64,000 nt of DNA from Eledone cirrhosa (GCA_964016885.1 OZ024740.1:11532001-11596000), one strand, 5' to 3'. Positions 26,483-60,017 are shown, counted from the stretch's first letter. The notes: generated by a model not told the origin, from the letters alone. Program-made: numbers and translations.

Positions 26483-26716
26483 TATATATATATTATTCAA
26501 AATATTAACAAATGAAAAATATTCTCATAATCAAAATATATACTTTATTATATATATTTCAGAGGTACTGTGTTGTTTTTTCAGTACGCCCTCATCAGAC
26601 AAATATATGATTTGATATATGACATACCGCTACGGTCTTGATTATTCAATTCCAGTTTTGGCAGCATAAAATATACATATATAAATATTGGTATTGGCAG
26701 AATATAAATATATATA

Positions 26717-28168
26717 TTCGCAAGAAGGAAATCAGAGGAAAGAAAGTTCAAGCATGTTCTACAACATGAGGACCAAAAACGTGAGGTGTTCAGGATTGCT
26801 AGGCAATGTGTCAAGGAAAACCGTGATATTGTCGGGGAGAAGTGTGTACTTAAGGATGATGGCATATTTGCCATCACCGACGCTGATAAGAAGGTAGCTT
26901 GGAAGTGTCACTACGAAGGCTACTAAATGATGAGAATAAATGGGAGAAAGACAGTCTCCCCCACATCGACCCAATAGAGGGACCAGCAGTGTTAGTCGAG
27001 GGTAGTATAATAAGTAAGGCAATCAAGGATATGAAGACGGGTAAGGCGGCTGGGCCTTCGGAAATAGTTGCTGAGATGCTGAAGGCATCTGGCACGGTGG
27101 GACACACCATGGTCACCCGGATAGTTAACCAAGTCGTACAGAATGGGGTTGTTCCGAAGGACTGGCATAGCAGCATCATCGTTAACTGTTATAAGGGTAA
27201 AGGAGATGCCCTAGATAGGAGTAACTATAGAGGCATTAAATTAATCGACCAGGTCATGAAGGTCACGGAAAAAGTAATAGCGCAACTAATCAGAGAGAGA
27301 ATTGACCTAGATGAAATGCAGTTCGGGTTTGTGTCAGGCAAAAGTACCACAGACGCTCTTTTCATTGTACGACAACTACAGGAGAAGTACCTAGCTAAAG
27401 GTAAACCCCTCTACTTAGCTTTTGTCGACTTGGAGAAAGCCTTCGACAGAGTCCCCCGTTCCATTATCTGGTGGGCCCTTAGAAAACTCGGTGACGACGA
27501 ATGGCTTGTGAGAGCTATACAAGCCATGTATAAAGAAACAGTCAGCAAGGTTAGAATTAACAACGAATATAGTGAAGAGTTTAGCGTAAAAGTTGGCGTC
27601 CATCAGGGCTGTTCTCAGCCCCCTACTATTTATTATTGCCCTTCAGGCTATAACAGAGGAGTTCAAGACCGACTGCCCATGGGAACTCCTATACGCAGAC
27701 GACCTAACGCTCATAGCTGAATAAATGGCCGAGCTAGAGAAGAAATTCCAAACATGGAAGCACGGCCTAGAATCAAAAGGCCTTAAAATTAATCTGGCTA
27801 AGACCAAAGTTCTAGTTTGTAGGAAAGAAAATAAGGCGCCGGGCCCTTCTGGGAAATGGCCATGCTCAGTGTGTAGGTAAGGCGTAGGTAGAAACTCCAT
27901 TTTATGTCCCAAATGCAAAGTATGGGTGCATAAAAGATGTAGTGGGATCACAGGTAAGCTAACTAAGAACATAGATTTCACATGTGGCCGGTGCTCTGGT
28001 GCAATAAGTAGCAGCAAGTGCCCACAAAATACTAGCTCTTTCAACTGCGCAGAGGGCTCTATAGAAATAGTGGACAGCTTCCATTACCTGGGTGACAAAA
28101 TCAGCAGTGGGGGAGGGTGCTCTGAAAGTACAGTAGCTAGAGTCAGAACTGGATGGAAAAAGTTCAGA
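26717..28168 (+). mobile_element. RTE family A internal fragment (A2), truncated at both ends
   Basis: Matches A1 ~3510-4960 with frameshifts and stops. Starts after a TA-rich run and ends fused to an inverted copy. Confidence 0.92.
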
Positions 28169-29766
28169 ATTCTCACTGTTCCTCTGTATTGTACGACTCT
28201 AATTGCTCTTCCTTACTATCAAAAGCATCAAGTAATATGCTTTTAAATTTATTACTGGCTGTGGGGTCTTTTAACTTCCATATTTTTCTCCTGAGGATAC
28301 TCCTCTTCTGTTGTCGAGTACGTCTCGTCCAGACTATGAGGTCGCTAATTATGAGTCTATGTTGAGAGGTGCATTCTTCATGGGGGAGGGATTTAGTGTT
28401 TACAACAGACACTCTGTCACGTCTCCTGGTAAAGATATAATCTACCTGGCTTGTGTGTTCCCCCGATCTATAGGTGATCAAGTGATTGTCTCGTTTTTTG
28501 AAGTTAGTGTTACAGATAGTTAGGTTATTTTGGAGCCTTCCTCATTTCTAGTACCAAACCCATAGCCTCCATGGATTCCGTCATAGCCGTCACAATGTTG
28601 TCCAACGTGGCCATTTAGGTCGCCAGCGATAACTATGTAGTCACTGTCGGTTATTTGGGAGGTAGTGAGCATTAACGTCTCATAGAATCTGTCTTTTATA
28701 ACGCCAGGCAGTCCAGATTGTGGTGCATATGCAGATATTATTGTCACAGTAGTTCTATTGAGGACAAGTCTTATTTTAATTATTCTGTCGTTCACTCTAT
28801 TTAAGTCTATTATCTTATCTGCCCACTTTTCTGCTAACATGATTCCTACTCCACCCTGCCCATTGTCATTTCGCACCCAGAAAAGCTTATAACATCGTTC
28901 TTTACCCACAATGAATCTAGCAGACCCACCCCTCCACCTGGTCTCTTGAATACAACAAACATCGACCTCCTTACGTTCAAGCATTTCTACAACCTCGTTA
29001 GAGCGACCCTTTAAGGTGCCTACATTCATGGTACCAACTCTGAAGTTTTGGATTGCGTTTGGAGGGTGGGGTGGGGGTGGATTATGTTAGTCATCCTCGG
29101 CCGAAACAAGGAGGAGGAGTCCTTGCATTCTCGTCCGGCAGCATGAGGTGAATTTGTCTTTATCTTTGGCATTGTCACTGAGTGTCCAGATTTTTTTTTT
29201 CTTTTCAAACTCTCCAGAATTCCGTAGTCCATCCATCATATCGAAAGGCAACCAGTTAAATGATAGCATAGGCCGCTGACTTATAATTGGCCCACGTAAT
29301 AATGGTGGTGCGTGGGGGCGGCTGGGAGGGATATGGGGTATTTCGCGAGAAGATTAAGGTTTAAATAAGATCCCCGTATTTTGGGCATAATTTAACAAGC
29401 ATAAAAGATACAAGATTTGTTTTGAAAAATACGCTAGAATTATCGAATAGAAAAGCAACAAGGATTGGATTCTGGGATAAATGATACAGATTGATGAATG
29501 GACTAAGGAATTAAAATGGAGAGAAGAGTGAAGAAATAGCAATTAGTACGTTACATTTCACCGTGCGTGCACCTAGCCTGAAATAGGGTTGGCGGTTTTT
29601 GTGTTTCGTACTTGCAAAGGATTTATTTTATATTTGGAGAGCGCGGAAGGGATTGGGGGCGAACCAGCATGATATAGAGGGGGGTGGGGTGAAGATAGGA
29701 GGGAGCAGAGGTTAAGAGTTTAAATAAAGTCCTCGTATTTGGGGCATAATTTAACAAGCATAACAA
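28163..29766 (-). mobile_element. RTE family A 5' part (A3, diverged subfamily): endonuclease region, 5' UTR and upstream ~359-bp repeat
   Basis: ORFs 28520-29029 and 28173-28481 match the A1 endonuclease; 29230-29340 matches the A1 5' UTR. A ~50-bp block recurs at ~29355 and ~29713. Confidence 0.88.
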
Positions 29767-29833
29767 ATATATATAGATATATAAATATATATATATATAA
29801 ATATACATATATATATATACATATATATATATA

Positions 29834-31060
29834 TAAGACCAAAGTACTAGTTTGTAGGAAAGAAAACAAGGCGGCGGTCCCTTCTGGGAAATGGTCGTGC
29901 TCGGTGTGTAGGAAAGGCGTAGGTAGAAACTCCATTTTATGTCCTAAATGCAAAGTATGGGTGCATAAAAGATGTAGTGGGATCACAGGTAAGCTAACTA
30001 AGAACATAGATTTTACATGTGGCCGGTGCTCTGGTGCAATAAGTAGCAGCAAGTGCCCACAAAATACTAGCTCTTTCAATTGCGCAGAGGGTTCTATAGA
30101 AATAGTGGACAGCTTCCGTTACCTGGGCGATAAAATCAGCAGTGGGGGAGGGTGCTCTGAAAGTACTGTAGCTAGAGTCAGAACTGGTTGGAAAAAGTTC
30201 AGAGAGCTTATACCACTATTAGCTGCTAAAGGGTTCTCCCTAAAAATGAAAGGCAGGTTGTACGATGCCTGCATACGAACAGCAATGCTGCATGGCAGTG
30301 AGACCTGGGCATTGTGTGCAGAGGATATACGCAGACTAGAGAGGAACGAAGCTTGCATGCTCCGCTGGATGTGTAACAGTAATATACGTGAACGGCAAAG
30401 CATAAACGAACTAAGGAAAAAATTAGAGATAAGAGGGATCAGATGTTGTTTACTCGAGAGAAGGCTACGTTGGTATGGACACGTGATGCGCATGAAAGTC
30501 GATAGCTGTATAACAAAGTGCAGGGCAATAAAGATAGACGGTAGTCACGGAATAGGCAGACCTAGAAAAATCTGGGACGAGCTGATAAACTCCGACATCA
30601 CACACTTACACCTCTCCAAGACAATGTCACTGGACCGAGACCTTTGGCGGTACTCAGTAACAGAGAAGACCCGCCTTACCTAAATATATAGTAAAACCTA
30701 CTCCAGCCAGTAGGCATCTCTAACAAAATACACCCCGTCCCACCACCACCACCCCCACCCCATCCACACCACCCCGTTCTATGTAAAGTTATGTTGGTGC
30801 CGCGCCATCGAGGCCGAAACAAATGAGATCGTGTAGGTGCCACGACAAAAAAACACACAGTCCACGCTGTAATGTGGCCGTGTAGGCAACACGGTAAAAA
30901 CCTCCCAGACCCACACTGTAAATGTGGTTGGTGTTAGGAAGGGCATCCAACTGTAGAAAACCTGCCAGACAGTCCTATGCGAGCAAGACAATCACTCTTG
31001 CCTCAAGTGGGACTACCCCCGTCCAAACCCATGCAAGCGTGGAACACGGACGTTAAACGT

Positions 31061-31090
<30 letters not shown>
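29834..31090 (+). mobile_element. 5'-truncated RTE family A copy (A4)
   Basis: Starts at KTKVLV right after (TA)n; open to EKTRLT*; complete 3' UTR and (GAT)n tail. Confidence 0.95.
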
Positions 31091-31091
<1 letters not shown>

Positions 31092-31117: not shown

Positions 31118-32005
31118 ATCATCATCATCATCGTTTAACGTCCGTGTTCCACGCTTGCATGGGTTTGGACGGAGGGTTTTCCCACTTGAGGCAAGAGTGG
31201 TTATCTTGCTCGCATAGGACTATCTGGCGGGTTTTCTACAGCTGGATGCCCTTCCTAACACCAACCACATTTACAGTGTGGGGCTGGGAGGTTTTTACCG
31301 TGTTGCCTACACGGCCACATTACAGCGTGAACTGTGTGATTTTTGACGTGACACCTACGCGATCTCATTTGTTGTGGCACCAACATAACTTTACATTGAA
31401 AGGGGCGGTGTGGATGGGGTGAGGGTGGTGGGACGGGGGTGTATTTTGTTAGAGATGCCTACTGACTGTAGTAGGTTTTACTTTGTATTTAGGTAAGGCG
31501 GGTCTTCTCTATTACTGAGTACCGCCAAAGGTCTCGGTCCAGTGACATTGTCTTGGTGAGGTGTGTGTGAGGTCGGAATTTATCAGCTCCTCCCAGGTTT
31601 TTCTGGGTCTGCCTATTCCGTGGCTACCGTCTATCTTTATTGCCCTGCACTTTGTTATACAGCTATCGTCCTTCATGCGCATCACGTGACCATACCAACT
31701 TAGCCTTCTCTCGAGTAAACAACATCTGATCTCTCTTATTTCTAATTTTTTCCTTAGTTCGTTTATGCTTTGCCGTTCACGTATATTACTATTACACATC
31801 CAGCGGAGCATGCAAGCTTCGTTTCTCTCTAGTCTGCGTATATCCTCTGCACACAATGCCCAGGTCTCACTGCCATGCAACATTGCTGTTCGTATGCAGG
31901 CATCGTACAACCTGCCTTTCATTTTTAGGGAGAACCCTTTAGCGGCTAATAGTGGTATGAGCTCTCTGAACTTTTTCCACCCAGTTCTGACTCTAGCTAC
32001 TGTAC
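31118..32005 (-). mobile_element. 5'-truncated RTE family A copy (A5), tail-to-tail with A4
   Basis: ATCATC tail, 3' UTR and C-terminal ORF on the minus strand; bounded by TA tracts. Confidence 0.93.
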
Positions 32006-32025: not shown

Positions 32026-32214
32026 ATCATCATCACCGTTTTACGTCCGTTCTTCCATGCTAGCATGGGTTAGACGGGTTGTCCTGTTGTTGGCAGTGTC
32101 TGGTCGGCTGACCATGCCTTGCTCATACAGGAACTGATTTTTGGCTTGATTTCTACTGCTGGATGCCCTTCCTAACACCAACCTCATTTACAGTGAGTGC
32201 TGGGTGCTTTTTCC
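32026..32214 (-). mobile_element. RTE family B 3' UTR-only insertion
   Basis: Nearly the same as 54233-54430; flanked by TA runs. Confidence 0.85.
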
Positions 32215-32239
32215 GTATACATATATATATAAATATAAA

Positions 32240-32822
32240 GAAGTCGAGGGGGTTGCAGTCAGGCGAGCTGGGAGGCCAGATGTCAGGTGAAGTGTGGTCG
32301 GCGAAGTTCTCTGACAACCAGGCTTGGGTCTTTCGGCTGGTATGGCAGGGCGCTGAGTCTTGCTGCCACACGTACGGCCTACCTGCAGCTACCTGGTCGA
32401 TCCAGGGCTTTACTACCTCGCTCAGAACGCGGATGTAGCCATCGGTGTTCAGCTTGAGACCCTCAGGGAAGAACTCAGCGTTCTGAAGGCATCAGATCGT
32501 CGATCATGTATTTTCCTCTATGATGTTGCTCTTTAGTCGAATCCTGAATCTTCCAATTCCTTTCTGACCTTTTCCACCATTCTCCTGCTGATGCTGAGAA
32601 AGTCTGAAATTTTCATATTTGTCCTCCCGGCGCAGATTCAAAGAAGAAGTCCGTGTCTCTTCCACAAATTTGGAGGTTCAAAATTATTCATAATTAATTA
32701 TTCTGAAAATAAATAATGGAAATATAGTAACTGTTTTTATGAAGACAAGAGTGACAACATAAGTAAAAAAAAAATTGCATAAAATTAGCATTTGAAAATT
32801 GCCAATAAATATCGTCTGCACC

Positions 32823-32825
<3 letters not shown>
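32240..32825 (-). mobile_element. Tc1/mariner-superfamily fragment (maT/rosa-like), deleted
   Basis: WQQDSAPCH...WPPSSPDCNPLDF catalytic-region motifs; terminus CAGGGTG next to a TA tract at 32825. Confidence 0.75.
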
Positions 32826-32877
<52 letters not shown>

Positions 32878-32919
32878 TTTGTATATATATATATGAATAT
32901 ATATAAATATTTGTATATA

Positions 32920-34218
32920 CAAGGGGGGATCAAAAAGTTCGCAGAATTTTTCAGAAAATATTCTATTTTTCAAAAAATATGATTTACCTTCAATTTATTT
33001 TTCTACATAGTTGCCATCCAGGTCAATACACTTCACAAGGCGATGCTTTCAGCTTCGTAAGCCGTCTCTAAAGAAAGTTGAAGGCCTGTTCGAAGCCATG
33101 TGTTGGCAGTGTTTTTAGCTTCTTCAACACCACTAAAGCGGGTTCCTTTTAGCATTTCTTTGAGTTTTGGAAAAAGTCTGATGGGGCTAAATCTGGACTA
33201 TAAGGCGGGTGAGGAAGCACTCCCCATAGAAATTCTCAAAGAACTTCTTTTGCAACCCACGCAGAATGCACTGGTGCATTGTCATGGTCAAACAAGATCC
33301 CACCATGAAGTTTCCCTTTTCGTTTCTTGACTAATGCCTCTTTCAGCTTCCTTAAAACATTTGCATAGTAAGCTCCTGTCACAGTTCTTTGACCTTCAAG
33401 ATAATCTATTAGTATCACCCCATCTGAATCCCAGAAAATGGTGGCCATCACTTTTTGATCCGACTTTTGAGATTTGAACTTGATTGGCCCCGATGATCCA
33501 CGTGGAAGCCACTGTTTTGACTGCTGTTTGGATTCAGGATCATACTGGTAGATCCAGGTTTCATCTCCGGTGATGATTCTGGTTAGGAAATGCTCTTCAT
33601 CAACTTCAATTTTGTTTAATATCGCCAAAGACAGATCACTTCGAAGAATCAGTTGATCAGGGCGCAACGCTTTTGGGACCCATCGCGCTGAAAGCTTGCT
33701 TAGTTATCGTGCAGAATTGAATTTGCCGAACCATATGAAATGTCTAGGGACTTAGCTAACTGATTAACTGTTATTCGTCAATCTTCTTCAATTAAAGTCT
33801 GAGCAGCCTCAATGTTTTGGTCATTTTTTTTATGTTCCTAGTCTTCCACTGCGATGGTCGTCTTCAATGTCGTCTCTCCCTTGTTTGAATCACTGAATCC
33901 ACTTGTAGACAGCAGTTTTCTTTGGAGCAGTAGTACCGTAAACTTTAACTAAAGCCTCCATAATCTGTGTCCCTTTCCATTTGAGTTTCACCAGAAACTT
34001 GATATTCGATCTTATCTCAAAATAACTATTTTCCATTGTTCCAAAAAGAGGTTTTTTTAAAGAGTGTCAGTACTGTACAATAGTCCGCGCATAACTGACT
34101 GCAAGTGACTAATAGCAAGGTAAACACCCAGTGACAATGTTCTGACATGTTTAATATTGTTTTAACCTATTTTTCTCTTACTACGATAAAATTCCGCAAA
34201 CTTTTTCATCCCCCCTCG
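32920..34218 (-). mobile_element. Full-length (1299 bp) mariner element with TA target duplication
   Basis: 31-bp imperfect TIRs: CAAGGGGGGATCAAAAAGTTCGCAGAATTTT and, reverse-complemented, CGAGGGGGGATGAAAAAGTTTGCGGAATTTT. TA on both sides. Confidence 0.92.
32995..34036 (-). pseudogene. Mariner transposase, disrupted
   Basis: MENSYFEIRSNIKFLVKL start, ARWVPK, RIITGDETWIYQYDPE, DHDNAPVH, YVEK* end; internal stops and frameshifts. Confidence 0.88.
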
Positions 34219-34262
34219 TATATATGAATATTTGTGTATATATATATATCATCATTTTATTT

Positions 34263-34578
34263 ATCATCATCATTTTACGTCCGCTTTTCCCTGCTTGCAA
34301 GGGTGGGACGGGAACTGATTCTAGCTTGATTTTTACAGCTGGATGCCCTTCCTAACACCAACCTCATTTACAGTGAGTGCTGGGTGCTTTTTGCCATGGC
34401 ACTTCTACGACCACTTTGCAGTGGAATGATAGGGACCCCAGTCCTATCATCTCATTTCTACAGCTGAGTAAACTGGAACAATGTGAAATAAAGTGTCTTG
34501 CTCAAGGAAACAACACATCACCCGGTCTGAGAATTGAACTCACAACCTTTTGATTGCAAGGCCAATGCTCTAACCGCT
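34263..34578 (-). mobile_element. tRNA-derived CORE-type SINE, 5' end clipped
   Basis: Same sequence as 22441-22788 without the first ~15 nt. Confidence 0.88.
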
Positions 34579-34623
34579 ATCGTTTGTTGGAAAAAGAAGT
34601 AAGTGACATAGTCACTACTTTAA

Positions 34624-37116
34624 CCCTTTAGCATTCAAACCGACAAGATTATGTCCTTTTTCATTTATTCAAACCGACAAAAACCGACATTTAATACCAC
34701 ACGGAGATCTCCTTCTAAAAATAAACATTGACATCATCGAAATCTCGTCAATTTGAGATTACTGCGAGATAAAGCCCTTACGCGCGAAAATTAACTCTTA
34801 GTATAGTTAAAGAACTTGAGATAACACGTGTTTTTAACGTTGAAAGTGTAACATGGCTTCCGAAAGTAGCGACAACGAATTTGAAGGTTTTACGTCCGAC
34901 GACATTCGAGATCAAAAAGAAACAGAAGATAATATCAGTGATTTATCTTCAAACGAATCAGATATATTTATTTTTGATATATCTGATAATGATGATAGTC
35001 ACTTTGAAAATGAAAGAGAAGATATAACTGACACCATTGAAAAAACACCAACGTGGTTGAAAGAAACAACACCGATACATGTTTCGGATTTTACTGAAAA
35101 TATTGGACCACAACAAACATTACCACCCGATGCTAAAGCACTGGGTTATTTATTTTTTTTTTTATCACAAACTTTCTTCGAAGTTGTGGCAAATCGCTAT
35201 GCACAACAACAGATTTCTAATATCGGAAAACCCGATCTGTTATGGCGTCCGACAGATTCTGCCGAAATGAAAGCGTTTTTTACCATAAACATTATGTTTG
35301 GTATTAAACAATTTCCACGACTGTGGAATTATTGGAGTACTGATATAAGGTTTGGTGACCCTTATATATCTAGTATTATGGCAAAAACGAGATTCATCAA
35401 ATTAAACCAGTGTTTGCATCTGGTTGATACTTCAAATGCCCCTGGTAGAAATGAATCAAATTACGACCCACTGTACAAAGTACAACCATTAATTGAAATG
35501 TTGTCAGAAAAATTTAAAAGTGTGTATATACCTGGATAAAATCTTAGTGTTGATGAAGCTATGATTGGGTATAAGGGTAGGGTTCATTTCAGACAGTATA
35601 TGCCAGCTAAACCCACCAAATGGGGCATCAAAGTGTGGGAACTGTGTGAATCGGACACAGGATACTGTGTAAACTTTGATGTTTACACAGGAAAAAAACA
35701 TAACGGAGAGAAAAAACACGGGTTGGCTTACGATGTTGTGTGGTCACTGACTCAACCCTTCCACTCTCAACACAGACATATTTATTTTGACCATTTTTTT
35801 TCTTCGGTGCTTTTAGCAGAGGATCTTGCCCTTGTAAATACATACACCTGCGGCACAATAATGAGCAATCGGAAAGGGCTACCCCAAGAAATAAAAGAGA
35901 ACATGTTAGCCACAGTGTTCAAAGACAAACGGCAAATTTTGTTCCTGAGTTCTAACCAACAATCAGGTGTTGGGGCTGAGGGTAGACCTTTAGTTAACCT
36001 CTCCTACAATAAATATATGGGTGGGGTTGACAAATCTGACCAATATTGTGCTTATTACCCAGTTGGGCGCCCTGGAAAGAAATGGTGGAGATACATCTTG
36101 TGGTTTTTAGTGAATTTAACCATTGTGAATTCTTTTATTGTATTTACTATAAGCCACAAGAATCCGCCACCACCAAAGGACTACTGTCATATGAAGTTTT
36201 GCGTGGACATTGCATCCCAGCTACGTGGAGGAAATACTTCTCGCAAACACAAAGCTGGGAAAAAATCAAAATTAGCAGTGGTCCACAAAGAAAATATTGA
36301 TTTTCATAAAGTGGAGAGAATTGATGGTAGGAGGAAGGTTTGCCGATTGTGCTCTTTGCAAAAGAGAAAAACTGTTAAAGGTTACGCAATCCAAACCCTA
36401 TTTATGTGTTCCTTTTGCAAAGTGCCATTATGTAAAGGGTGCTTTGGGCAGTATCACGATAGAAATATTGTCTGACAATATTGAAAACAATATTTTAAAA
36501 ATATATTAGAACACATATACAAAAACACCTGCATTCACCTGTGTCACACCTGTTAATGAACTTATATATTGGGAACACTCTGTTACATAAATTTACACCG
36601 TACATTGTGTAAGAGTACATTGCCAATATTATTTTGACTGGTGAAAAGGTTTTATACATTTTTTTCAATGAAAATATTTGCCTGGAATCTAGAGAAAGAC
36701 TAAAACCTTGTACTGATTACACCTGCATTTTTAATTAATTCACCTGTTCGGAAAACTGCTAGAATTGATGGAAATCAGCATGTAGGTCATTATTGGATTT
36801 TTTTGGCAACAAATCTAACAGGTAAGGCAGATAAAGTTTAAATTTTTGTGTTTATCCATGAAGTTATTACTTTTACACCTGTTAATTAATTTCACCTGCT
36901 CATAAAAGTCAAATTTAACAAAAAATATCAGATAAAAATATATAATTGTAAATTATAGTTATTTAAACATCTACTGACAAAATTTGAAGTCTGCACATAG
37001 AAAATTAAAGTAATTACAAACAAATAAAATTGATAACCCTCTTGAGTATAATTAAGTGAAAATAATGCGAATAGCTGAACATGACATTTGACAATTCAAT
37101 GTGAATGCTAAAGAGT
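34624..37116 (+). mobile_element. Full-length piggyBac transposon (~2.5 kb) with TTAA target duplication
   Basis: TTAA|CCCTTTAGCATTCA ... TGAATGCTAAAAGAG|TTAA (TTAA at 34620-34623 and 37117-37120); internal transposase. Confidence 0.92.
34853..36475 (+). pseudogene. piggyBac transposase (PGBD4-like) with an in-frame stop
   Basis: ORFs 34853-35539 and 35561-36475 share a frame, separated by TAA at 35537-35539 just before NLSVDEAM. Motifs KPTKWGIKVW, YFDHFF, YNKYMGGVDKSDQ and a C-terminal Cys-rich domain are present. Confidence 0.88.
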
Positions 37117-37279
37117 TAAAACAATAGCGTTAAGGTTTTCAAAATGCTTTTAATTAAGCATACAGTGTATTGCCAAATATACTATATATACATTTATATA
37201 TACATATATATGCTGTTCTATATTTTTGAGACGAGGAATTATTTACATTGGACGGATAGGTGTCCTCATCTTGTTTTGT

Positions 37280-37378: not shown

Positions 37379-37445
<67 letters not shown>

Positions 37446-38145
37446 GTATATATATATATACGGACGAAGAACCCAAGAGCACAGACTTCGTCCGTTCCCA
37501 TGTCGATTCAATTTGGATTGCCTTGGAAACATAACCTTATTATGTAACCAGCTGTCTGACGATGTCGCGGCACTGGCGCACGGAACAGTGTGGCCACTGT
37601 CGCCATTGAAATATGTATCACACCATTATTATTAAAGGACTTTAACATCTGAAACTACTGCGCTTTTCCTTATTCTATATATATATATAAATATTATAAA
37701 TATATTAATGTATCTGCCACAGTCGCTGTGCTATAAAGAGCAGTAAGCCCCCCCCCCCCCCCCCCCCCCCACCATCACCATTTTCGGAGAAAAGTCAAAT
37801 GTCGGAGTTCAAATTAGTTGAAAACGCAAAAAAAAAAAACCCTTAATTATTATCAATTGTATTTAGTGTTATTAGGAGTGAACATACAAAGAAACAAACT
37901 TCCTGTTTGTAAGTATTATAGATATGGACACTGACACACATACAAACATACACACACATATGTAGTGGTGGGGATGACAACTATGGCCACTATAATCACA
38001 TCATATATGTCTGATGACCCTGTCATAAATAGGCGACATTCCACAGTAACATGACTCACTGTTTAGCCTAAATAAAACGAATGTATGTATGTATATATAA
38101 AGCGGACGTATGTTGATGATGGTGATGATGATGATGATATATATA

Positions 38146-38914: not shown

Positions 38915-39260
38915 ATGGCTTAGTGGTTAGAAAATTGGCCTTGCAATCGAAAGGTTGTGAGTTCAATTCTCAGACTGGGTGATGTGTTGTTTCTTTGAGC
39001 AAGACACTTTATTTCACATTGCTCCAGTTTACTCAGCTGTAGAAATGAGATGATAGGGACTGGGGTTCATATCATTCCACTGCAAAGTGGTCGTGGAGGT
39101 GCCACGGCAAAAAAGCACCCAGCACTCACTGTAAATGAGGTTGTTGTTAGGAAGGGCATCCAGCTGTAGAAATCCAGCCAGAATCAGTTCCCGTCCCACC
39201 CTTGCAAGCAGGGAAAAGTGGACGTAAAATGAAATGATGATGATGATGATGATGATGATG
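38915..39260 (+). mobile_element. tRNA-derived CORE-type SINE with (GAT)n tail
   Basis: A box TGGCTTAGTGG, B-box-like GAGTTCAATTC, CORE-like segment, RTE tail, terminal hairpin. Confidence 0.9.
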
Positions 39261-39732: not shown

Positions 39733-39968
39733 ATCATCATCATTATTTTATATCCGCTTTCCCCTACTTGCAAGGGTTGGACGGGTCCTATTCAGCACAG
39801 CATCTCTCCACTTGTCACGGTCCTTTGTCATCTCCTCGGTGAGTTTCAGCGATCTGAGGTTTGCTCTCACCACCTCCGCCCATGTTTTACGTGGTCTACC
39901 TCTACTGCGTCTTCTTTCTACTGGGATTTCTTATCCCTCATATACCCAGTTTCTTTCTCAACTCGTCT
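39733..39968 (-). mobile_element. RTE family D 3' fragment (very short 3' UTR)
   Basis: Minus strand encodes [39 protein letters not shown], directly followed by hairpin CGTCCAACCCTTGCAAGTAGGG and a GAT tail. Confidence 0.8.
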
Positions 39969-40095: not shown

Positions 40096-43041
<2,946 letters not shown>

Positions 43042-45443: not shown

Positions 45444-46338
<895 letters not shown>

Positions 46339-48926: not shown

Positions 48927-48999
<73 letters not shown>

Positions 49000-51052
49000 A
49001 TCATCATCATCGTTTAACGTCCATGTTCCACGCTTGCATGGGTTTGGACGGGGGTTTTCCCACTTGAGGCAAGAGTGTTTGTCATTGCTCGCATGGGACT
49101 GTCTGGCGGGTTTTCTACAGCTGGATGCCCTTCCTAACACCAACCACATTTACAGTGTGGGGCTGGGAGGTTTTTACCGTGTTGCCTACACGGCCACATT
49201 ACAGCGTGGACTGTGTGTTTTTTTTTGTCGTGACACCTACACAATCTCATTTGTTTCAGCCTGGATGTTGTGGCACCAACATAACTTTACATTGAAAGAG
49301 GCGGTGTGGATGGGGTGGGGGTGGTGGGACGGGGGTGTATTTTGTTAGAGATGCTTACTGACTGTAATAGGTTTTACTTTGTATTTAGGTAAGGCGGGTT
49401 TTCTCTATTACTGAGTACCGCCAAAGGTCTCGGTCCAGTGACATTGTCTTGGAGAGGTGTAAGTGTGTGAGGTCGGAATTTATCAGCTCGTCCCAGGTTT
49501 TTCTGGGTCTGCCTACTCCGTGGCTACCGTCTATCTTTATTGCCCTGCACTTTGTTATACAGCTGTCGTCTTTCATGCGCATCACGTGACCATACCAACG
49601 TAGCCTTCTCTCGAGTAAACAACATCTGATCCCTCTTATTTCTAATTTTTTCCTTAGTTCGCTTATGCTTTGCCGTTCACATATATTACTATTACACATC
49701 CAGCGGAGCATGGAAGCTTCATTCCTCTCTAGTCTGCGTATATCCTCTGCACACAATGCCCAGGTCTCACTGCCATGCAACATTGCTGTTCGTATGCAGG
49801 CATCATACAACCTGCCTTTCATTTTTAAGGAGAACCCTTTAGCGGCTAATAGTGGTATAAGCTCTCTGAACTTTTTCCATCCAGTTCTGACTCTAGCTAC
49901 TGTACTTTCAGAGCACCCTCCCCCACTGCTGATTTTGTCACCCAGGTAATGGAAGCTGTCCACTATTTCTATAGAACCCTCTGCGCAATTGAAAGAGCTA
50001 GTATTCGTGGGCACTTGCTGCTACTTATTTCACCAGAGCACCGGCCACATGTAAAATCTATGTTCTTAGTTAGCTTACCTGTGATCCCACTACATCTTTT
50101 ATGCACCCATACTTTGCATTTGGGACATAAAATGGAGTTTCTACCTACGCCTTACCTACACACTGAGCATGGCCATTTCCCGGAAGGGCCCGGCGCCTTA
50201 TTTTCTTTCCTACAAACTAGAACTTTAGTCTTAGCCAGGTTAATTTTAAGGCCTTTTGATTCTAGGCCGTGCCTCCATGTTTGGAATTTCTTCTCTAGCT
50301 CGGCCATTGATTCAGCTATGAGCGTTAGATCATCTGCGTATAGGAGTTCCCATGGGCAGCCGGTCTTGAACTCCTCTGTTATAGCCTGAAGGGCAATAAT
50401 AAATAGTAGGGGGCTAAGAACAGAGCCCTGATGGACACCAACTTTTACGCTAAACTCTTCGCTATATTCGTTGTTAATTCTAACCTTGCTGACTGTTTCT
50501 TTATACATGGTTTGTATAGCTCTCACAAGCCATTCGTCAACACCTAGTTTTCTAAGAGACCACCAGATAATGGAACAGGGGACTCTGTCGAAGGCTTTCT
50601 CCAGGTCGACAAAAGCTAAGTATAGGGGTTTACTTTTAGCTAGGTATTTCTCCTGTAGTTGTCGTACAATGAAAAGAGCGTCTGTGGTACTTTTGCCTGA
50701 CACAAACCCGAACTGCATTTCATCTAGATCAATTCTCTCTCTGATTAGTTGCGCTATTACTTTTTCCGTGACCTTCATGACCTGGTTGATTAATTTAATG
50801 CCTCTATAGTTACTCCTATCTAGGGCGTCTCCTTTACCCTTGTAACAGTTAATGATGATGCTGCTACGCCAGTCCTTCGGAACAACCCCATTCTGTATGA
50901 CTTGGTTTACTATCTGGGTGACCATGGTGTGTCCCACCGTTCCAGAGGCCTTCAGCATCTCAGCAACTATTTCCGAAGGCCCAGCCGCCTTACCCGTCTT
51001 CATATCTTTGATTGCCTTACTTATTATACTACCTTCGACTAACACTGCTGGT
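49000..51052 (-). mobile_element. 5'-truncated RTE family A copy (A8)
   Basis: ORFs 50152-51147 (part) and 49385-50014, 3' UTR and ATC tail; bounded by TA runs. Confidence 0.93.
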
Positions 51053-51070
51053 GTATATATGTATATATAT

Positions 51071-51198
51071 ACCATGGTCACCCAGATAGTAAACCAAGTC
51101 ATACAGAATGGGGTTGTTCCGAAGGACTGGCGTAGCAGCATCATCATTAACTGTTACAAGGGTAAAGGAGATGCCCTAGATAGGAGTAACTATAGAGG
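51071..51198 (+). repeat. 128-bp inverted duplication of 50801-50928
   Basis: Shares A8-specific variants (CCCAGATAGTAAACC, GTCATACAG, ATCATTAACTGTTAC); one mismatch seen. Confidence 0.9.
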
Positions 51199-54100
51199 GT
51201 AAAAAACGATGTTATAAGCTTTTCTGGGTGGGAAACGACGATGGGCTGGGTGGAGTAGGAATCATGGTAGCAGAAAAGTGGGCAGATAATAGACGTAAAT
51301 AGAGTGAACGACAGAATGATTAAAATACGACTTGTCCTCAATAGAACTACGGTGACAGTAATATCTGCGTACGCACCCCAATCCGGACTGCCCGGCACTA
51401 TAAAAGACAGATTCTATGAGACACTGATGCTAACTACCTCCCAAATATCCGACAGTGACTATATAATTATCGCAGGTGACCTAAATGGTCACGTTGGACA
51501 ACATTGTGACGGCTACGACGAAATCCATGGAGGCTATGGGTTTGGTACTAGAAATGAGGAAGGCTCCAGAATCCTGGAATTCTGTGATGCAAATAACCTA
51601 ACTATCTGTAACACTAACTTCAAAAAACATGACAATCACCTGATCACCTATAGATCCGGGGAACACACAAACCAGGTAGATTATATCCTTACCAGAAGAC
51701 GTGACAGAGTGTCTGTTGTAAACACTAAATCCCTCCCCCATGAAGAATGCACCTCCCAACATAGACTGATAATTAGCGAGCTCATAGTCAGGACGAGACG
51801 TACTCGACAGCAGAAGAGGACTATCCTCAGGAGAAAAATATGGAAGCTAAAGGACCCCACAGCCAGGAATAAATTTCAAAGCATATTACTTGATGCTTTC
51901 GACAGTAAGGAAGAACATTTACAGACGAAGTCTGTGGCTGGAGCAGGCCTGTAGGCAGGAGGAGAGTAACATGGTGGTGGAACAGTAAGGTGGAGGGGTC
52001 AATTAAGGCCAAAAAGCAGGCTTGGAAAGTATGGGGGGAAGTAGAGAAGACTATCAAGTGGCCAGGAGGGAAGCTAGGAGACAAGTGTACTTAGCAATAA
52101 GGGAAGCTGAGGAAAGAAAGTTCAAGCATGTTCTACAACGCGATGACCAAAAACGTGAGGTGTTCAGGATTGCTAGGCAATGCGTCAAGGAAAACCGTGA
52201 TATTGTCGGGGAGAAGTGTGTACTAAACGACGATGGCACACTTGCCATCACTGACGCTGATAAGAAGGTAGCTTGGAAGTGTCACTATGAAAGGCTACTA
52301 AATGAGGAGAATAAATGGGAGAAAGACAGTCTCCCCCATATCGACCCAATAGAGGGACCAGCAGTGTTAGTCGAGGGGAGTATAATAAGTAAGGCAATCA
52401 AGGATATAACTGTTATAAGGGTAAAGGAGACGCCCTAGATAGGAGTAACTATAGAGGCATTAAATTAATCGACCAGGTCATGAAGGTCACGGAAAAAGTA
52501 ATAGCGCAACTAATCAGAGAGAGAATTGACCTAGATGAAATGCAGTTCGGGTTTGTGTCAGGCAAAAGTACCACAGACGCTCTTTTCATAGTACGACAAC
52601 TACAGGAGAAGTACCTAGCTAAAGGTAAACCCCTCTACTTAGCTTTTGTCGACTTGGAGAAAGCCTTCGACAGAGTCCCCCGCTCCATTATCTGGTGGGC
52701 TCTTAGAAAACTAGGCGTTGACGAATGGCTTGTGAGGGCTATACAAGCCATGTATAAAGAAACAGTCAGCAAGGTTAGAATTAACAACGAATATAGTGAA
52801 GAGTTTAGCGTAAAAGTTGGCGTCCATCAGGGCTCTGTTCTCAGCCCCCTACTATTTATTATTGCCCTTCAGGCTATAACAGAGGAGTTCAAGACAGGCT
52901 GCCCATGGGAACTCCTATACGCAGACGACCTGACACTCATAGCGGAATCAATGGCCGAGCTAGAGAAGAAATTCCAAACATGGAAGCACGGCCTAGAGTC
53001 AAAAGGACTTAAAATTAACCTGGCTAAGACCAAAGTACTAGTTTGTAGGAAAGAAAACAAGGCGGCGGTCCCTTCTGGGAAATGGTCGTGCTCGGTGTGT
53101 AGGAAAGGCGTAGGTAGAAACTCCATTTTATGTCCTAAATGCAAAGTATGGGTGCATAAAAGATGTAGTGGGATCACAGGTAAGCTAACTAAGAACATAG
53201 ATTTTACATGTGGCCGGTGTTCTGGTGCAATAAGTAGCAGCAAGTGCCCACAAAATACTAGCTCTTTCAATTGCGCAGAGGGTTCTATAGAAATAGTGGA
53301 CAGCTTCTGTTACCTGGGCGATAAAATCAGCAGTGGGGGAGGGTGCTCTGAAAGTACTGTAGCTAGAGTCAGAACTGGTTGGAAAAAGTTCAGAGAGCTT
53401 ATACCACTATTAGCTGCTAAAGGGTTCTCCCTAAAAATGAAAGGCAGGTTGTACGATGCCTGCATACGAACAGCAATGCTGCATGGCAGTGAGACCTGGG
53501 CATTGTGTGCAGAGGATATACGCAGACTAGAGAGGAACGAAGCTTGCATGCTCCGCTGGATGTGTAACAGTGATATACGTAAACGGCAAAGCATAAATAG
53601 ATGTTGTTTACTCGAGAGAAGGCTACGTTGGTATGGACACGTGATGCGCATGAAAGTCGATAGCTGTATAACAAAGTGCAGGGCAATAAAGATAGACGGT
53701 AGTCACGGAATAGGCAGACCTAGAAAAACCTGGGACGAGCTGATAAACTCCGACATCACACACTTACACCTCTCCAAGACAATGTCACTGGACCGAGACC
53801 TTTGGCGGTACTCAGTAACAGAGAAGACCCGCCTTGCCAGTAGGCATCTCTAACAAAATACACCCCGTCCCACCACCACCACCCCCACCCCATCCACACC
53901 ACCCCGTTCTATGTAAAGTTATGTTGGTGTCGCGCCATCGAGGCCGAAACAAATGAGATCGTGTAGGTGTCACGACAAAAAAACACACAGTCCACGCTGT
54001 AATGTGGCCGTGTAGGCAACACGGTAAAAACCTCCCAGACCCACACTGTAAATGTGGTTGGTGTTAGGAAGGGCATCCAACTGTAGAAAACCTGCCAGAC

Positions 54101-54212
54101 AGTCCTATGCGAGCAAGACAATCACTCTTGCCTCAAGTGGGACTACCCCCGTCCAAACCCATGCAAGCGTGGAACACGGACGTTAAACGTTGATGATGAT
54201 GATGATGATGAT
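51195..54212 (+). mobile_element. Near full-length RTE family A copy (A9) with internal deletions
   Basis: Runs from EGKKRCYKL to the (GAT)n tail. Deletions near 51920, 52407 and 53597. Shares the EKTRLASRHL* end with A1. Confidence 0.94.
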
Positions 54213-54232: not shown

Positions 54233-56581
54233 ATCATCATCATCATCATCATCACCGTTTTACGTCCGTTCTTCCACGCTAGCATGGGTTAGACGGGTTG
54301 TCCTGTTGTGTGCAGTGTCTGGTCGGCTGACCATGCCTTGCTCATACAGGAACTGATCTGGCTTGATTTCTACAGCTGGATGCCCTTCCTAACACCAACC
54401 TCACTTACAGTGAGTGCTGGGTGCTTTTTCGTGGCGCCTACACGTCCACATTACAGTGTGGGCTGGGTGCTTTTTTGCGGTGGGGGGTGTGGGGGCATAT
54501 TGTTTATATGCTTCAGCATGTACCCATGGGAGGTCGGGTACTCTGTATTACTGCGTGACGCCAGAAGTCACGGTCGTGTGTCATTGTCTTTGAGAGGTGT
54601 AATTGGGTAAGGTCGGCTTTTATCACCTCATCCCAGATCATCTTGGGTCTCCCCACTCCGCGGTTTCCATCAACTTCTAGTGTTCTGCACCTTTTTATGC
54701 AGCTGTCATCCTTCATACGCATCACATGTCCATACCAGCGCAACCGCCTCTCCTGCACACAGCATTTGATTCCTCTTATGCTCAGTCTCTCTCTCAATTC
54801 ATTTATGCTTTGTCGTTCACGTATATTACTGTTACACATCCATCGGAGCATGCAGGCTTCGTTTCTCTCTAATCTACGTAAGTCTTCCACCTTCAGCGCC
54901 CTGGTCTCACTACCATGCAACATCGCTGTTCGGATACACGCATCATACAGTCTGCCTTTCATTCTGAGGGAGAAGCCTTTTGCAGCTAGCAGTGGTAGTA
55001 GTTCCCTAAACTTCTTCCATCCCGTTCTTACCCTAGTTATTGTACTTTCTGAACACCCACCTCCGTTGCTAATTCGGTCACCTAGGTAGCAGAAGCTGTC
55101 TACTGTTTCTACAGGGCCCTCCCAGAGATTGGTGGTACTTGTTTCCTGTGGCTGTTTGCTGCTTGCTGTTTCAGCACAGCTGCTGCATGTGAAGCCTACA
55201 TTCTTAATTAAGCTTCCTGAGATCCCGCTACATCTCTTGTGTACCCATTGTTTGCATTTGGGGCAGAGAATGGAGTTCCTACCTACACCTTTCCTACATA
55301 CTGAGCAAGGCCATTTCCCCGAGGGGATCTGGGTTCTGTTTTCTCGTCTACTTACAAGGACCTTAGTCTTGGTCATGTTGACTTTGAGACCCTTTCTCTC
55401 TAGTCCCTGCTTCCAGGTTTGGAATTTATTCTCTAGTTCTACCATAGATTCAGCTATGAGTGCGAGGTCATCAGCATACAGGAGTTCCCATGGGCATCCG
55501 GTCTTAAACTCCTCCGTTATTGCCTGCAGGACTATGATGAACAGGGGAGGGCTAAGAACAGCCCTGGTGGACCCCAACCTGTATGCTAAATTCCTCGCTA
55601 TACTCATTGCTAATCCTAACTTTGCTGACTGCTCCCCTATACATGGCTTGTACCGCTTTCACAAGCCATTCATCTACTCCTAGTTTTCTAAGAGCCCACC
55701 AGATTACAGCATGTGGAACTCTGTCAAAGGCTTTCTCAAGGTCGACAAATGCCAAGTAGAGTGGCTTACTTTTAGCTAGGTACTTTTCCTGTAATTGCCT
55801 CACAAGGAAGAGGGCATCAGTGGTGCTTCTTCCTGGTACAAACCCAAATTGCATCTCGTCTATATTCACCCGGTCCCTAATCAGCTGTGCTATAACTCTT
55901 TCTGTTACTTTCATGACCTGGTCCATCAACTTTATACCTCTATAGTTTCCTCTATCTAGTGCATCGCCTTTGCCTTTGTAGCAGTTGACAATGATGCTAC
56001 TGCACCAATCTTTTGGTATGGCCCATTCTAGTATTACCTGGTTAACGATACGTGTGGTTATAGTGTGACCTACAGACCCAGATGCCTTCAGCATCTCGGC
56101 AGCTATACCCGATGGACCGGTTGCCTTCCCCATCTTCATATCTTTGATTGCCTTACTTACTACGCTGCTGCTGACTTGTACTGCTGGTCCCTCTATAGGG
56201 TCTACTTGGGGTAGGGTCTCTTCTTCCCATGCATTCTCCTCATTTAGTAATCTATCATAATGACTCTTCCATGCATCTTTCTTCTCAGCACTTGTGAGGG
56301 CAAGCTCACCTTTATCATTCCGGATACACTTCTCTCCAATGACATCACAACTATCTCTGACACACTGCCTCGCAATCTTGAATACCTCCTGTTTCTGGTC
56401 CTCACGTTGTAAAACATGCTTGAATTTTCTATCCTCCGCTTCCCTCCTAGCTATGTAATGTACCTTGCTCCTCCCGTTCTTCCATTCTTTCCATGCCTGT
56501 CTCTTGGCCTTAACTGCTTCATCTACCTTATTGTTCCACCACCAAGTCACTCTCCTCCTGCTTGAGGTCTTACTCCAGCCA
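54233..56581 (-). mobile_element. 5'-truncated RTE family B copy, tail-to-tail with A9
   Basis: ORFs 55552-56652 and 54513-55607 (one frameshift) with [13 protein letters not shown] and the same PHD finger; distinct 3' UTR. Confidence 0.93.
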
Positions 56582-57085
56582 TATATATATATATATATAT
56601 ATGTGTGTATATATATATATACACAAAGAGCAAAGGAGCTCTTAAGAGTCAATGGCCATCCAAAATCACTGGGAGAGATGACTCCTTAGCCTTTGTCAAG
56701 GCAGAATTCTAGAAGGAAAACTCTGATATAACACCTGCAACCCTGATGGTATCCAATGATGTTGACTTGTTCTTCTTTTTGGTAAATATCATCTTGGTTA
56801 AGAGAGTTGGACTGGCTTTGTGCAGTGCCTTTGCTCACTATAAAAGCTTCACGGCACAGGCATTGCTTTATATATGGAGATCTCTCTGCACTTGTCATCA
56901 CATGGTACCATGGGCCTAGCACTATGTGTCAATAATTGTCACAAGTGTAGTGTTTCTACCAGAGTTTTCAAGTCGCTGGCTGGACTAAAAAGTCACACTC
57001 GTCCAGCGTATCGGTAGGGGTTGTCCTACATGGATATAAAGTAGTGGCCGTACTCGAAAACGAGATGACAGCCACCATATATATA

Positions 57086-57121
<36 letters not shown>

Positions 57122-57146
57122 TGTATGTATGTATGTATGTATGTAT

Positions 57147-57389
57147 AGGCACATGGCTTAGTGGTTAGAGCATTGGCCTTGCAATCGAAAGGTTGTGAGT
57201 TCAATTCTCAGACCGGGTGATGTGTTATTTCCTTGAGCAAGACACTTTATCTCACATTGCTCCAGTTTACTCAGCTGTAGAAATGAGATGAAGGGTATCC
57301 AGCTGTAGAAATCAAGCCAGAATCAGTTCCCGTCCCACCCTTGCAAGCAGGGAAAAGCGGACGTAAAATGAAATGATGATGATGATGAT
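57147..57389 (+). mobile_element. CORE-type SINE with internal deletion
   Basis: Head and CORE join directly to AGGGTATCCAGCTG, then hairpin and (GAT)n. Confidence 0.88.
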
Positions 57390-57399
57390 ATACATACAT

Positions 57400-60017
57400 G
57401 AAAGCTTGAGCCTATGTGATGATGGGTAGATATGGAAGTTTGGTAAGACTGGTGAAACATGGAAAAGAGATACCACCTTGTCTGAAAACACTGTACCCAC
57501 AACAACTGACAATAAAAAAACTGAAAAAAACTCAGGGAAACTAAATTAGAACAACCTGCCATCCCCTGCACACAATCGTATACTGCAATCAAGGTACAAA
57601 TTGTTGTCCTTGAATGCACGTAGTCTATGCAATAAGATTCATCTTTTTGACTCCTACGTCAAAAGTATCAACCCTGATTTCATTACAGTCACGGAAACTT
57701 GGGCACATCCCTTACTCTGTGATGAGGTTTTCAGCATAACTGGCTACAACCTGTTTCGTAAAGACCGCATTAATCTTCGCGGTGGTGGTGTAATGGTCTG
57801 CGTTCGGTCAAATTTGTCGGCAATTCCTTGTGTTGATTTGAACCAATCGCAGCAGGAAGTTTTTTTCTGCAATATACGTATGACCATGTCAACACTGCTA
57901 CTTGAGTCGTTTACCGTCCCCCAAATTATCATCAAGACACTCAACTTTGTGATATCCTCCGAGCTGCTGCCAGGAAAACAGCCACTTATGTTTTTATTGC
58001 AGGAGACTTCAATCACCCTGAGATTGACTGGGAAACCTTTCGTTGGCCGCCAAGTGCAAATGACTTCCTTGAGCTAGTGCTGGACTTGAATTGGTCCCAA
58101 GTAGTCACCTCCCCAACAAGAGGTGACAACATTTTGGACCTACTCTTCACTACTACTCCTGAAACGGTCATTAGTGTTATTGCTGAGGAACCTTTAGGTG
58201 ACTCTGATCATGCTATGTTCATTGCCAATCTATCCTTCATGGGCAGTAACAAGAACCACAACCATCTCCAAACTGCTCACTTTGACTGGAATAAAGCAGA
58301 CTGGAACTGGTACTGCACCGAGTTGCAACGTCCAAACTGGCTTGAGTTCTACGACTCTGGAGATGTCAACACTGTACTCCAGAACATCCTGAGCTTAATA
58401 TGGACAGCATGTGTAGTATCGGTGCCACGTAAGCGGAAAAAACATCCCCAAAGTGCAATTTGGGAGACTGCAGCAGTCCGTCTTGCCAGAAAAGAACGTC
58501 GCAATGCTGAACGTGAGTACAAACTGCACAAATCAGACATTAATAGGAAGAGGCGAAATAGATCGTCCAACCACCTCAAACAGGTGACAAAAAAGGCAGT
58601 GCTTCAATTTGAGCAGCACATAGCAACCAGCCCTGATAGTAAGGTGTTGGTCCTCTTCACAATCGCCACACAAGCCAGGTTACTGACGACCCCCAAGGAA
58701 TGCGCAGAGCTCATTACTGAATGCTATGCAGGCATTTTCACTATTGAAGACCAGAGTGTACCGTCTTCACCACCTATGACACCGGACTCTATTACAACCA
58801 TCGATTTACACCTGCAATGCTGCAACGTCACCTAAAAAATAAACGCAACCATACCTCTCCTGGTCTTGATGGTGTTATGTACCTGCTTCTTAAACGTGGT
58901 GGGTATTTCCTTCTGCACCAGCTATCACGCTTCTTCCAATTCAGTCTGAACAACGGTGCTACTCCAGAACAGTGAAATCCTGCCAGTGTCATTCCTCTGT
59001 TCAAAAAGGGTGACCGCACATCACCTGTGAACTATCGTCCAGTCAGTCTTACTAGTTGCATTGCCAAACTGATGGAATCCTGTGTCAGAGAAACACTTTG
59101 GAACTTCTGGAACTCTCACAGTCTTCGGCCCTCGCAATTTGGATTTATCCCCAACTCCAGCTGCTGTGATGAACTTATCGAGTTTCTTGAAGACATGACC
59201 CGGATCACTGATGGTGGCTCATGGGTGGACGTTGTTTACCTTGACTTTGCGAAAGCTTTCAATTCTGTGCCACACAAAAGGCTTATGGCAAAACACTCTG
59301 CAATGGGTGTGAAGGATGATCTTTTTAACTGGTTGAAGTCCTTCATTCTCAGTCAAAGAGAGGTAGTCACGGTTCTGGGACATCATTCCTCACCATATGA
59401 GATGTCATCTGGTGTACCACAGGGATCTGTTCTTGGCCCCCTTTTGTTTGTGGCATATATTAATGACATAGATGCCAACTTAAAGAATGCCACAGTACTA
59501 AAGTACGCAGACGACATCAAGCTGTACCTTGAGATAAAAAGGACAGATCCTGAACACTATAGATCTTGCTTGCAGTCTGACCTGGACACAATGCAACAGT
59601 GGATCTCAGACTGGCAACTCAAGCTAGCTGTGGACAAGTGCACCACCATACATTTTGGGAGTAAAAACCCAGCGTCCTCATACTCCCTCCACAGCACTAA
59701 TATCAAGAAGTCTTCTTGTGAATGTGACCTGGACATTACAGTCAGCAGCGATTTGCGTTGGACGAAGCACGTCTCTAAAATTGTCAAGAGGGCCGAGGGT
59801 GTCTTAGCATCACTCAGCAAGACCTTTGTCAGCCGCTCTCCAGCTATCTATTTAAGGCTGTACATGGCTATGGTGCGGCCACATTTAGAATTTGCATCAC
59901 CTATCTTGCTCAGAAGATTGACCGCCTGGAAACTGTTCAGAGCTCATACCCTCCATTAGGCATCTACCATACTCTGAACGCCTTGCTTCCCTGGGCATGG
60001 ATACATTGAAGCTCCGT
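57400..60017 (+). mobile_element. CR1-group LINE ORF2 (endonuclease + RT), frameshifted
   Basis: LSLNARSL, ITVTETW, ILDLLFT, DSDH; NYRPVSLTS, YLDFAKAF, SGVPQGSVLGP, YADD, VRPHLEFA. Boundaries approximate. Confidence 0.88.

Follow-up and report, generated by a model that had tools for sequence, protein, structure and literature searches.

Did the mobile elements that crowd one octopus intron enter alternating TA/TG microsatellites that were already there, or are these tracts products of the insertions themselves? The question is raised by a 64,000-nucleotide (nt) stretch of the Eledone cirrhosa genome (GCA_964016885.1 OZ024740.1:11532001-11596000), here called the window and numbered from its first letter. 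In this window long and short interspersed elements (LINEs and SINEs) and DNA transposons are linked by TA-rich tracts within an intron of an hnRNP R/Q gene. The reading that we favour, with a probability of roughly 0.55, is that young RTE-type LINEs and several unrelated elements inserted in pre-existing TA/TG tracts, the LINEs by means of a TpA-nicking endonuclease and tail priming. The pattern is genuine and clearly exceeds local chance. It does not amount to a new kind of system, and the preference is narrower than the 'nearly every' junction of a preliminary description of this DNA.

Family A, the main builder of the arrays, is a 3.8-kb LINE with one 1122-amino-acid frame (2085-5453 in copy A1), which encodes an APE endonuclease, a reverse transcriptase (RT) and a PHD finger, and with a (TGA)n tail. 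The A1 frame has Pfam matches to Exo_endo_phos and RVT_1, with the endonuclease domain at ~2340-3110, and it matched the L1 endonuclease structure weakly. The PHD finger is inserted after the RT core, a layout found in many of the best 120 homologs listed; a literature search found no paper on PHD-bearing RTEs. Family A has the features of the RTE clade: a single open reading frame (ORF) with APE and RT, a length of 3-4 kb and a short tandem repeat at the 3′ end. The named matches of its endonuclease are plant proteins and proteins of Octopus, fish and moth called 'craniofacial development protein 2-like', a label that we read as RTE-derived; the assignment rests on these features and matches, not on an RT tree with named RTE references. 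Copies of family A are 90-97% identical to A1. Family B, ~75% identical to A, also has the PHD finger, and in A, B, SINE C and relatives the 3′ end is (TGA)n after a conserved 3′ motif, not poly(A). Element D is a second RTE-like LINE with C-terminal C2H2 fingers, whose RT is 38% identical to that of A; the label BovB-like for an RTE-like LINE is our assumption, as is the CR1 label of two further LINEs, which comes from general features and the preliminary description, not from a tree. Three LINE lineages, with RT identities of 28-38%, occur in the tracts.

Every one of the eight young family-A tails (8/8) leads into strict purine/pyrimidine alternation, over 22-468 nt. The same alternation was found at 9.8% of host positions when all tracts were counted, at 5.7% without the single 895-nt tract, and at 2.5% outside the arrays (p 8e-9 to 1e-13). 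A null of TA dinucleotides only was also tried, since RTE LINEs are reported to cut at TA, with the signature Tn-TA (PMC13295347, PMC6007223; here and below, cited papers are represented by excerpts of their text). Between 7 and 27% of such sites had the alternation (P 3e-5 to 8e-10). In the wider curated set an alternation of at least 11 nt adjoins 17 of 25 tails and 14 of 29 5′ ends, with a further three 5′ ends in AA-interrupted TA. The flank motifs are mixes of TA, TG, CA and TATG, with no single family-specific repeat; related older copies lie in unique DNA. These p-values hold for this locus only, since insertions are not independent of one another and the pattern was the reason for choosing the window.

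All 17 coordinates on which the preliminary description was based proved to be element ends adjoining TA/TG tracts. The weakest is 26717, with ~15 nt that are AA-interrupted and 9 nt of strict alternation, and 39968 is the 5′ end of E1, a short fragment of a different RTE tail. Within 26700-57400, 29-30 of the 38 junctions lie in tracts, compared with 2 of 16 in 1-23000 and 57500-64000 (hand count; Fisher 3e-5); 'nearly every' was nevertheless too strong a phrase, with only 14 of 29 among the 5′ ends. Age and place are confounded in this comparison, since most of the outer junctions belong to older, diverged copies. A1 is the sole young copy outside the chains, and its tail lies in TA. Nor is the preference confined to retroelements: mariners and Helitron-like elements sit in the same tracts. 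The further claim that a CR1, the mariner and the Helitron-like elements behave alike is borne out by two Helitron-like elements, the two mariners and the CR1 at 24078-25320; the second CR1 (57540-60030), the piggyBac at TTAA and the third Helitron-like element do not fit. The elements and tracts, in the order of the window, are as follows.

1983-5812, plus strand: A1, RTE-type LINE of family A, open frame 2085-5453; its (TGA)n tail enters the TA tract 5813-5956
5957-6293, minus strand: SINE C copy; its tail faces that of A1 across the tract, head outside TA
23286-23840, plus strand: Helitron-like, with TC at the 5′ end and a hairpin and CTAG at the 3′ end, which adjoins a TA tract
23870-24045, strand not assigned: 176-nt element of unassigned type, flanked by a perfect 27-nt duplication of interrupted TA tract
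24078-25320, plus strand: CR1-like LINE, 5′-truncated, RVT_1; TA on both sides
25339-26482, plus strand: Helitron-like, inserted in a TA tract; contains a 91-bp repeat
26717-29770, both orientations: A2 (plus, A:3507-4961) joined to inverted A3 (minus, 5′ untranslated region (UTR) to A:3310); TA at the outer ends, none at the fusion
29835-31091, plus strand: A4, 5′-truncated; TA at both ends
31118-32004, minus strand: A5, tail-to-tail with A4; TA at both ends
32026-32220, minus strand: family B tail fragment; TA at both ends
32241-32827, minus strand: mariner-like fragment with TA tracts on either side; frame DDE-like by reading, no match in Pfam
32919-34218, minus strand: mariner with terminal inverted repeats, Transposase_1; splits a tract with the same interruption on both sides
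34249-34579, minus strand: SINE C copy; tail in TA, head not
34620-37120, plus strand: piggyBac-like element at TTAA, DDE_Tnp_1_7; outside tracts
39733-39967, minus strand: E1, RTE-type 3′ fragment; TA at both ends
40194-43041, plus strand: A6; TA/TG at both ends
43080-45443, plus strand: A7, with a 112-bp duplication in the 3′ UTR; TA/TG at both ends
45444-46338: compound (TA)n(TG)m tract of 895 nt
46339-48496, plus strand: D, RTE-like LINE with C2H2 fingers; TG/TA at both ends
48518-48671, minus strand: A8 tail fragment; tail in TG/TA, 5′ end at least 10 nt from an imperfect tract
49000-51052, minus strand: A9; TA/TG at both ends
51071-54212, plus strand: A10 (126 nt) fused without TA to the chimeric A11; tail in TA
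54233-56581, minus strand: B1, family B, tail-to-tail with A11; TA at both ends
57148-57389, plus strand: SINE C copy; TA/TATG at both ends
57540-60030, plus strand: second CR1-like LINE; neither end in TA

The elements form chains, not nests. None of the 19 doubly flanked elements sits inside another, and the term 'nested' arrays was therefore wrong: the elements are joined end to end, in modular fashion, by linkers of 10 to 895 nt, many of only 18-42 nt, with two fused A/A junctions that have no TA. Chain 1 (~11 kb) has nine doubly flanked elements and chain 2 (~17 kb) eight. The nine of chain 1 stand on 344 nt of tract, where 2.5 would be expected by length (p 3e-4). The eight of chain 2 stand on 1533 nt, for which 11 would be expected; the other tracts, 754 nt, hold two (5.4 expected). 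Feed-forward growth, the proposal that every insertion renews its target, has only partial support: it is plausible for chain 1, with its excess (9 against 2.5), and is not needed for chain 2 (8 against 11).

Several junctions and copies have structures of their own. The A2/inverted A3 fusion at 28163-28168 has a 6-nt overlap with no inverted homology remaining, and could be a deleted tail-to-tail palindrome; A4/A5 and A11/B1 are comparable intact pairs. In the region 50801-52407 the 126-nt segment of A10 is 99% identical to its inverted neighbour A9 in a fold-back-like arrangement, and A11 is a chimera, 92% and then 97% identical to A1, with internal deletions. An element with long inverted ends at 19172-22144 has a TA tract on its left side only and is split by an old deleted family B copy, the one clear nested insertion. 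The Helitron-like 5′ ends (61180-61626; 23286-23310) start with a short TA run of their own, so that some apparent tracts are element sequence; the Helitron-like calls are based on end motifs.

Besides the SINE C copies in the list above, two more lie at 22441-22795 and 38915-39259. The copies are 92-97% identical to each other, and the tail of the family A/B type suggests that SINE C is probably mobilised by A or B. Its head looks tRNA-like by eye; ARAGORN found no tRNA in the head. A 3′ stem-loop common to A, B and SINE C folded no better than shuffles in five of six sequences and was not used. Upstream, three identical 635-bp tandem units at 1-1982 run straight into A1. They may be promoter or 5′-UTR monomers of family A, in which case the true 5′ end of A1 may fall outside the window. 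Their similarity to the 358-bp unit upstream of A3 (29351-29769) is weak and borderline (score 85, shuffle maximum 84).

Several observations bear on whether the tracts preceded the insertions. The letters after the A tails vary by copy (GTATA, ATATA, ATGTG, ACACA, ACATA), and because they differ they are not templated by the element. Interruptions of the alternation follow the chromosome: on the plus strand the tracts at 29.8-32.2 kb carry CA/AA and those at 39.7-51 kb carry TG, whichever strand the element has. Left and right flanks of an element resemble each other: for the 16 scorable pairs out of 19 the mean cosine is 0.53, against 0.25 when pairs are permuted on the same strand (p 5e-4), a stricter null than one mixing orientations (p 5e-5). 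Same-strand similarity exceeded flipped similarity in 12 pairs and fell below it in 3. Eight elements are on the plus and eight on the minus strand, as expected for a symmetric target, and the intron has tracts without any RTE (18073-18240, 37381-37462). The A tails are intact, and the A1 endonuclease keeps the invariant residues of the alignment described below, as expected for target-primed insertion. By eye, five truncated A copies have ~1-4 nt in common with the tract at the 5′ end. The earlier remark that no target duplications are visible was upheld: the exact overlap of the flanks of the 19 elements is 7.8 nt compared with 6.9 nt permuted (p 0.23).

Polymorphic insertions were available for another octopus. 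Supplement 10 of PMC9115989 contains a MELT set of 211 non-reference insertions of an Octopus bimaculoides RTE. A text search found a TA-tract duplication or deletion in 12 of the 211 calls, of which at least six are 0/0 in one animal and two are genotyped in none. The PASS filter keeps one of these 12 TA-type calls and drops 11, and the excerpts state that the authors kept PASS calls only. Among the 71 rows seen whole, 29 have a low-complexity flag, and TA-type sites make up 7 of the 13 resolved sites of at least 4 letters; several MELT sites are deletions. At O. bimaculoides sites the reference allele already has 12-25 nt of TA. These raw counts show empty TA sites in this species, for an RTE that may differ from A and D. 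With the interruptions shared across elements on the chromosome strand and the RTE-free tracts, these polymorphic RTE insertions at TA favour the idea of the tracts as landing pads.

Relatives in other animals were collected through an alignment of 37 PHD-bearing proteins (47-53% identity), from which 92 loci were fetched; the 40 examined comprise most of those whose matches reach toward the 3′ end, and of these 13 had no tail repeat and two had too little flank. Among the remaining 25 tail-like repeats, two of which (L031, L042) are probably not true tails, none had at least 11 nt of alternation (the best, L002, had 10 nt), compared with 15 of 22 such tails in the window. Three relatives (L071, L032, L004) have 10-16 nt target duplications in unique DNA. 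A1 and 35 of 36 relatives have an endonuclease loop of the same length, 12 residues, and none of the aligned sequences departs from the Gln-His pair; comparison of all 37 found no specialisation of the octopus A1 endonuclease. One contig filed under a bacterial metagenome-assembled genome (L083) carries an RTE relative at 2176-4630, a SINE-like stretch and kilobases of broken (TA)n; it is probably animal contamination, and several other genome_contigs matches look alike.

These results can be joined in one model. The LINE endonuclease would nick one of the many TpA steps in a tract. Reverse transcription would be primed from the DNA end so released, once 1-2 of its bases (AT, TG) had paired with the (UGA)n tail of the RNA. 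The truncated 5′ end would then join by microhomology of 1-4 nt. Mariners and Helitrons would enter the same tracts by their own target rules; the mariner target is TA and the Helitron target AT. Every insertion would keep tract on both sides, so that later elements land in the linkers and not inside earlier elements, giving mixed, non-nested chains. On the most economical view, the preference looks like the outcome of a host rich in TA tracts and an ordinary TpA-cutting RTE enzyme acting in flexible alternating tracts, with no newly evolved sequence-specific endonuclease.

A number of points weigh against this reading. All comes from a single window, picked for its pattern, in which insertions within a chain are not independent. 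Outside the chains only 2 of 16 junctions are in tracts, mostly those of older, diverged copies; TA is absent from both ends of older or diverged copies and of one of six SINE C copies, and the piggyBac-like element and the second CR1-like LINE also stand apart. When the null is TATA only, 31-60% of sites have the alternation and the enrichment becomes modest (P 2e-2 to 8e-5, at most 0.017). Of 12 young RTE 5′ ends only 2 have the T stretch that belongs to the Tn-TA signature, scored as TTT lying upstream of the junction by 15-35 nt; the cut position is unfixable inside a tract. A target duplication was not demonstrable for any RTE copy by the exact-overlap permutation; slippage would hide one. 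The flanks of A10/11, B1 and C5 match better when flipped. In O. bimaculoides, 6 of the 13 resolved MELT sites are not TA, low-complexity calls are error-prone, and the MELT element may not be family A. The relatives' lack of TA flanks is a lower bound, since their short-read contigs break at long TA and probably come from few hosts; two contigs ended inside (TG)n.

What else could produce such chains? Elements may have inserted at TA seeds of 6-8 bp, with duplication and slippage during or after repair growing the tracts, which would then be largely insertion products. This has been described for maize TAFTA, as cited in PMC5907723, and likewise predicts matching interruptions on both sides; the modest enrichment over the TATA-only null and the spread of linker lengths also suit it, but the long RTE-free tracts of the intron and the 12-25 nt of TA in the O. 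bimaculoides reference alleles do not. A long prior tract and a short seed that was duplicated and then expanded are inseparable at this locus, and we regard the seed as a possible explanation, though a doubtful one. The breaks could also be made by the host: hairpins or cruciforms of (AT)n would be nicked by structure-specific nucleases and primed by LINE ribonucleoproteins with no need of their own endonuclease. Structure-selective nucleases are reported to cut AT repeats (PMC12972899, PMC9890227), the three LINE lineages share the same tracts, duplications were not seen, and several MELT sites are deletions. Yet the tails and the A1 endonuclease are intact, and the duplications of relatives L071, L032 and L004, in unique DNA, are of the ordinary sort. 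Many of the linkers would form cruciforms poorly, being short or TG-rich compound tracts. We consider breaks of this origin unlikely.

Slightly less probable again is an outlier intron in a cephalopod genome rich in (AT)n, with no genome-wide preference. The squid genome is >10% (AT)n (PMC9068888), and the choice of the window and the scarcity of outer junctions in tracts fit this; however, pure (TA)5+ makes up only 2.9% of the intron, the null counts all the tracts present, A1 ends in TA outside the chains, and the O. bimaculoides calls are TA-rich genome-wide. That the element itself supplies the TA, through its RNA tail or through RT slippage at junctions, as the preliminary description had allowed for, is very improbable, because the post-tail letters vary, the interruptions are chromosome-stranded, and mariners and Helitron-like elements, which have no RT, are flanked alike. 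A hint in its favour is the microsatellite-filled 3′ UTR reported for RTE-2_OV (PMC9115989), so that the (GT)n which follows D could belong to this element as its tail. Mis-joins in the assembly, by which TA tracts would link separate loci, are the least credible explanation. Long TA tracts are hard to assemble, and the 0.83-0.85 of words found in the best-matching sequencing runs refer only to 1990-11980, a segment outside the chains (the matches listed included no RNA run). Mis-joins are nevertheless made unlikely by the flanking exons, which are consecutive and in phase, and by the many linkers of 18-42 nt; moreover, the copies differ by 3-10% from A1 and interruptions match across whole elements.

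The exons in question place the arrays in a single 52-kb intron (10208-62381) and are followed by one further repeat.

10023-10207, plus strand: hnRNP R/Q exon, residues 1-60, tblastn with P0121 at 84% identity, GT after the exon
62382-62607, plus strand: next hnRNP R/Q exon, residues 61-136, 94-99% by alignment to Octopus vulgaris cluster P0121, Pfam hnRNP_Q_AcD
63276-64000: 33-bp minisatellite, ~21 copies at 96%, in the next hnRNP R/Q intron

By our own annotation mobile-element bodies cover 44,179 of the 64,000 nt of the window. Besides A, B, SINE C and D there are two CR1-like LINEs, two mariner-like elements, one piggyBac and three Helitron-like elements.

The closest known arrays are SaTar of guayule, rice, sorghum and citrus (PMC5907723) and the mt-MITEs of pineapple (PMC8449440), which in the excerpts are non-autonomous Mutator-like DNA transposons of plants. 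Like SaTar, the octopus chains consist of mixed elements joined by TA microsatellites, none interrupting another. Unlike SaTar, their members are not Mutator-like elements with terminal inverted repeats; the octopus chain stands in an animal intron and is made mainly of APE-type LINEs, to which SINEs, mariners and Helitrons are added. The Tn-TA group of RTEs (Bov-B, Sauria SINE, plant RTE, Au SINE; PMC13295347, PMC6007223) likewise has a single ORF with APE and RT, a short-repeat tail and a TA cut. Gln precedes the catalytic His in 37 of 37 aligned proteins, like D229Q of plant RTEs if the positions are equivalent. In the known Tn-TA cases the target is a lone TA step in unique DNA, preceded by a T stretch ~10 nt away, and the duplications are clear, whereas the octopus targets are long tracts with few T stretches (2/12).

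LINEs that interrupt pre-existing microsatellites, as in the octopus, are also known: Waldo, Mino, Kibi, Koshi and Dong (PMC3812793) target ACAY, AC, TC, TTC and TAA, one family-specific motif each, and the excerpts of that review name no LINE for (TA)n. In the octopus, by contrast, several clades share a loose target of alternating purine and pyrimidine and also insert elsewhere. The Penelope-like Naiad/Neptune elements (PMC8557442) are invertebrate retroelements with a (TA)n bias and duplications hidden in the tract; they have a GIY-YIG endonuclease and a telomerase-like RT, whereas the octopus elements have an APE endonuclease and no GIY-YIG match in Pfam. RTE-2_OV (PMC9115989) resembles D, by description only, in its C2H2 finger and in the microsatellite that directly follows its ORF; the excerpts of that study report no target preference. 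For octopus LINEs, neither targeting of TA tracts nor arrays linked by TA turned up in a search that scarcely covered subscription journals and Repbase reports. The plant arrays, Tn-TA cutting by RTEs and the (TA)n bias of Naiad are thus already known; new here are modular arrays of the SaTar kind in an animal, with LINEs as their main builders.

The intact frame of A1 makes its enzyme directly testable. Cephalopod transposon hotspots are described as unexplained in excerpts of PMC13282606. We suggest, tentatively and with less than even confidence, that octopod (AT)n tracts are a genome-wide, self-renewing sink for unrelated LINE clades, SINEs and DNA transposons, whose non-nested chains inflate introns and hotspots. 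If so, short-read callers, because they filter low-complexity sites, would have discarded a large part of the new LINE insertions of octopuses, among them any that arose somatically in the brain. Estimates of octopus RTE activity, brain retrotransposition included, may be low, since 11 of 12 TA-type calls fail PASS. SaTar-type modular arrays would extend from plant DNA transposons to animal LINEs, and one mechanism would account for both the hotspots and the long introns.

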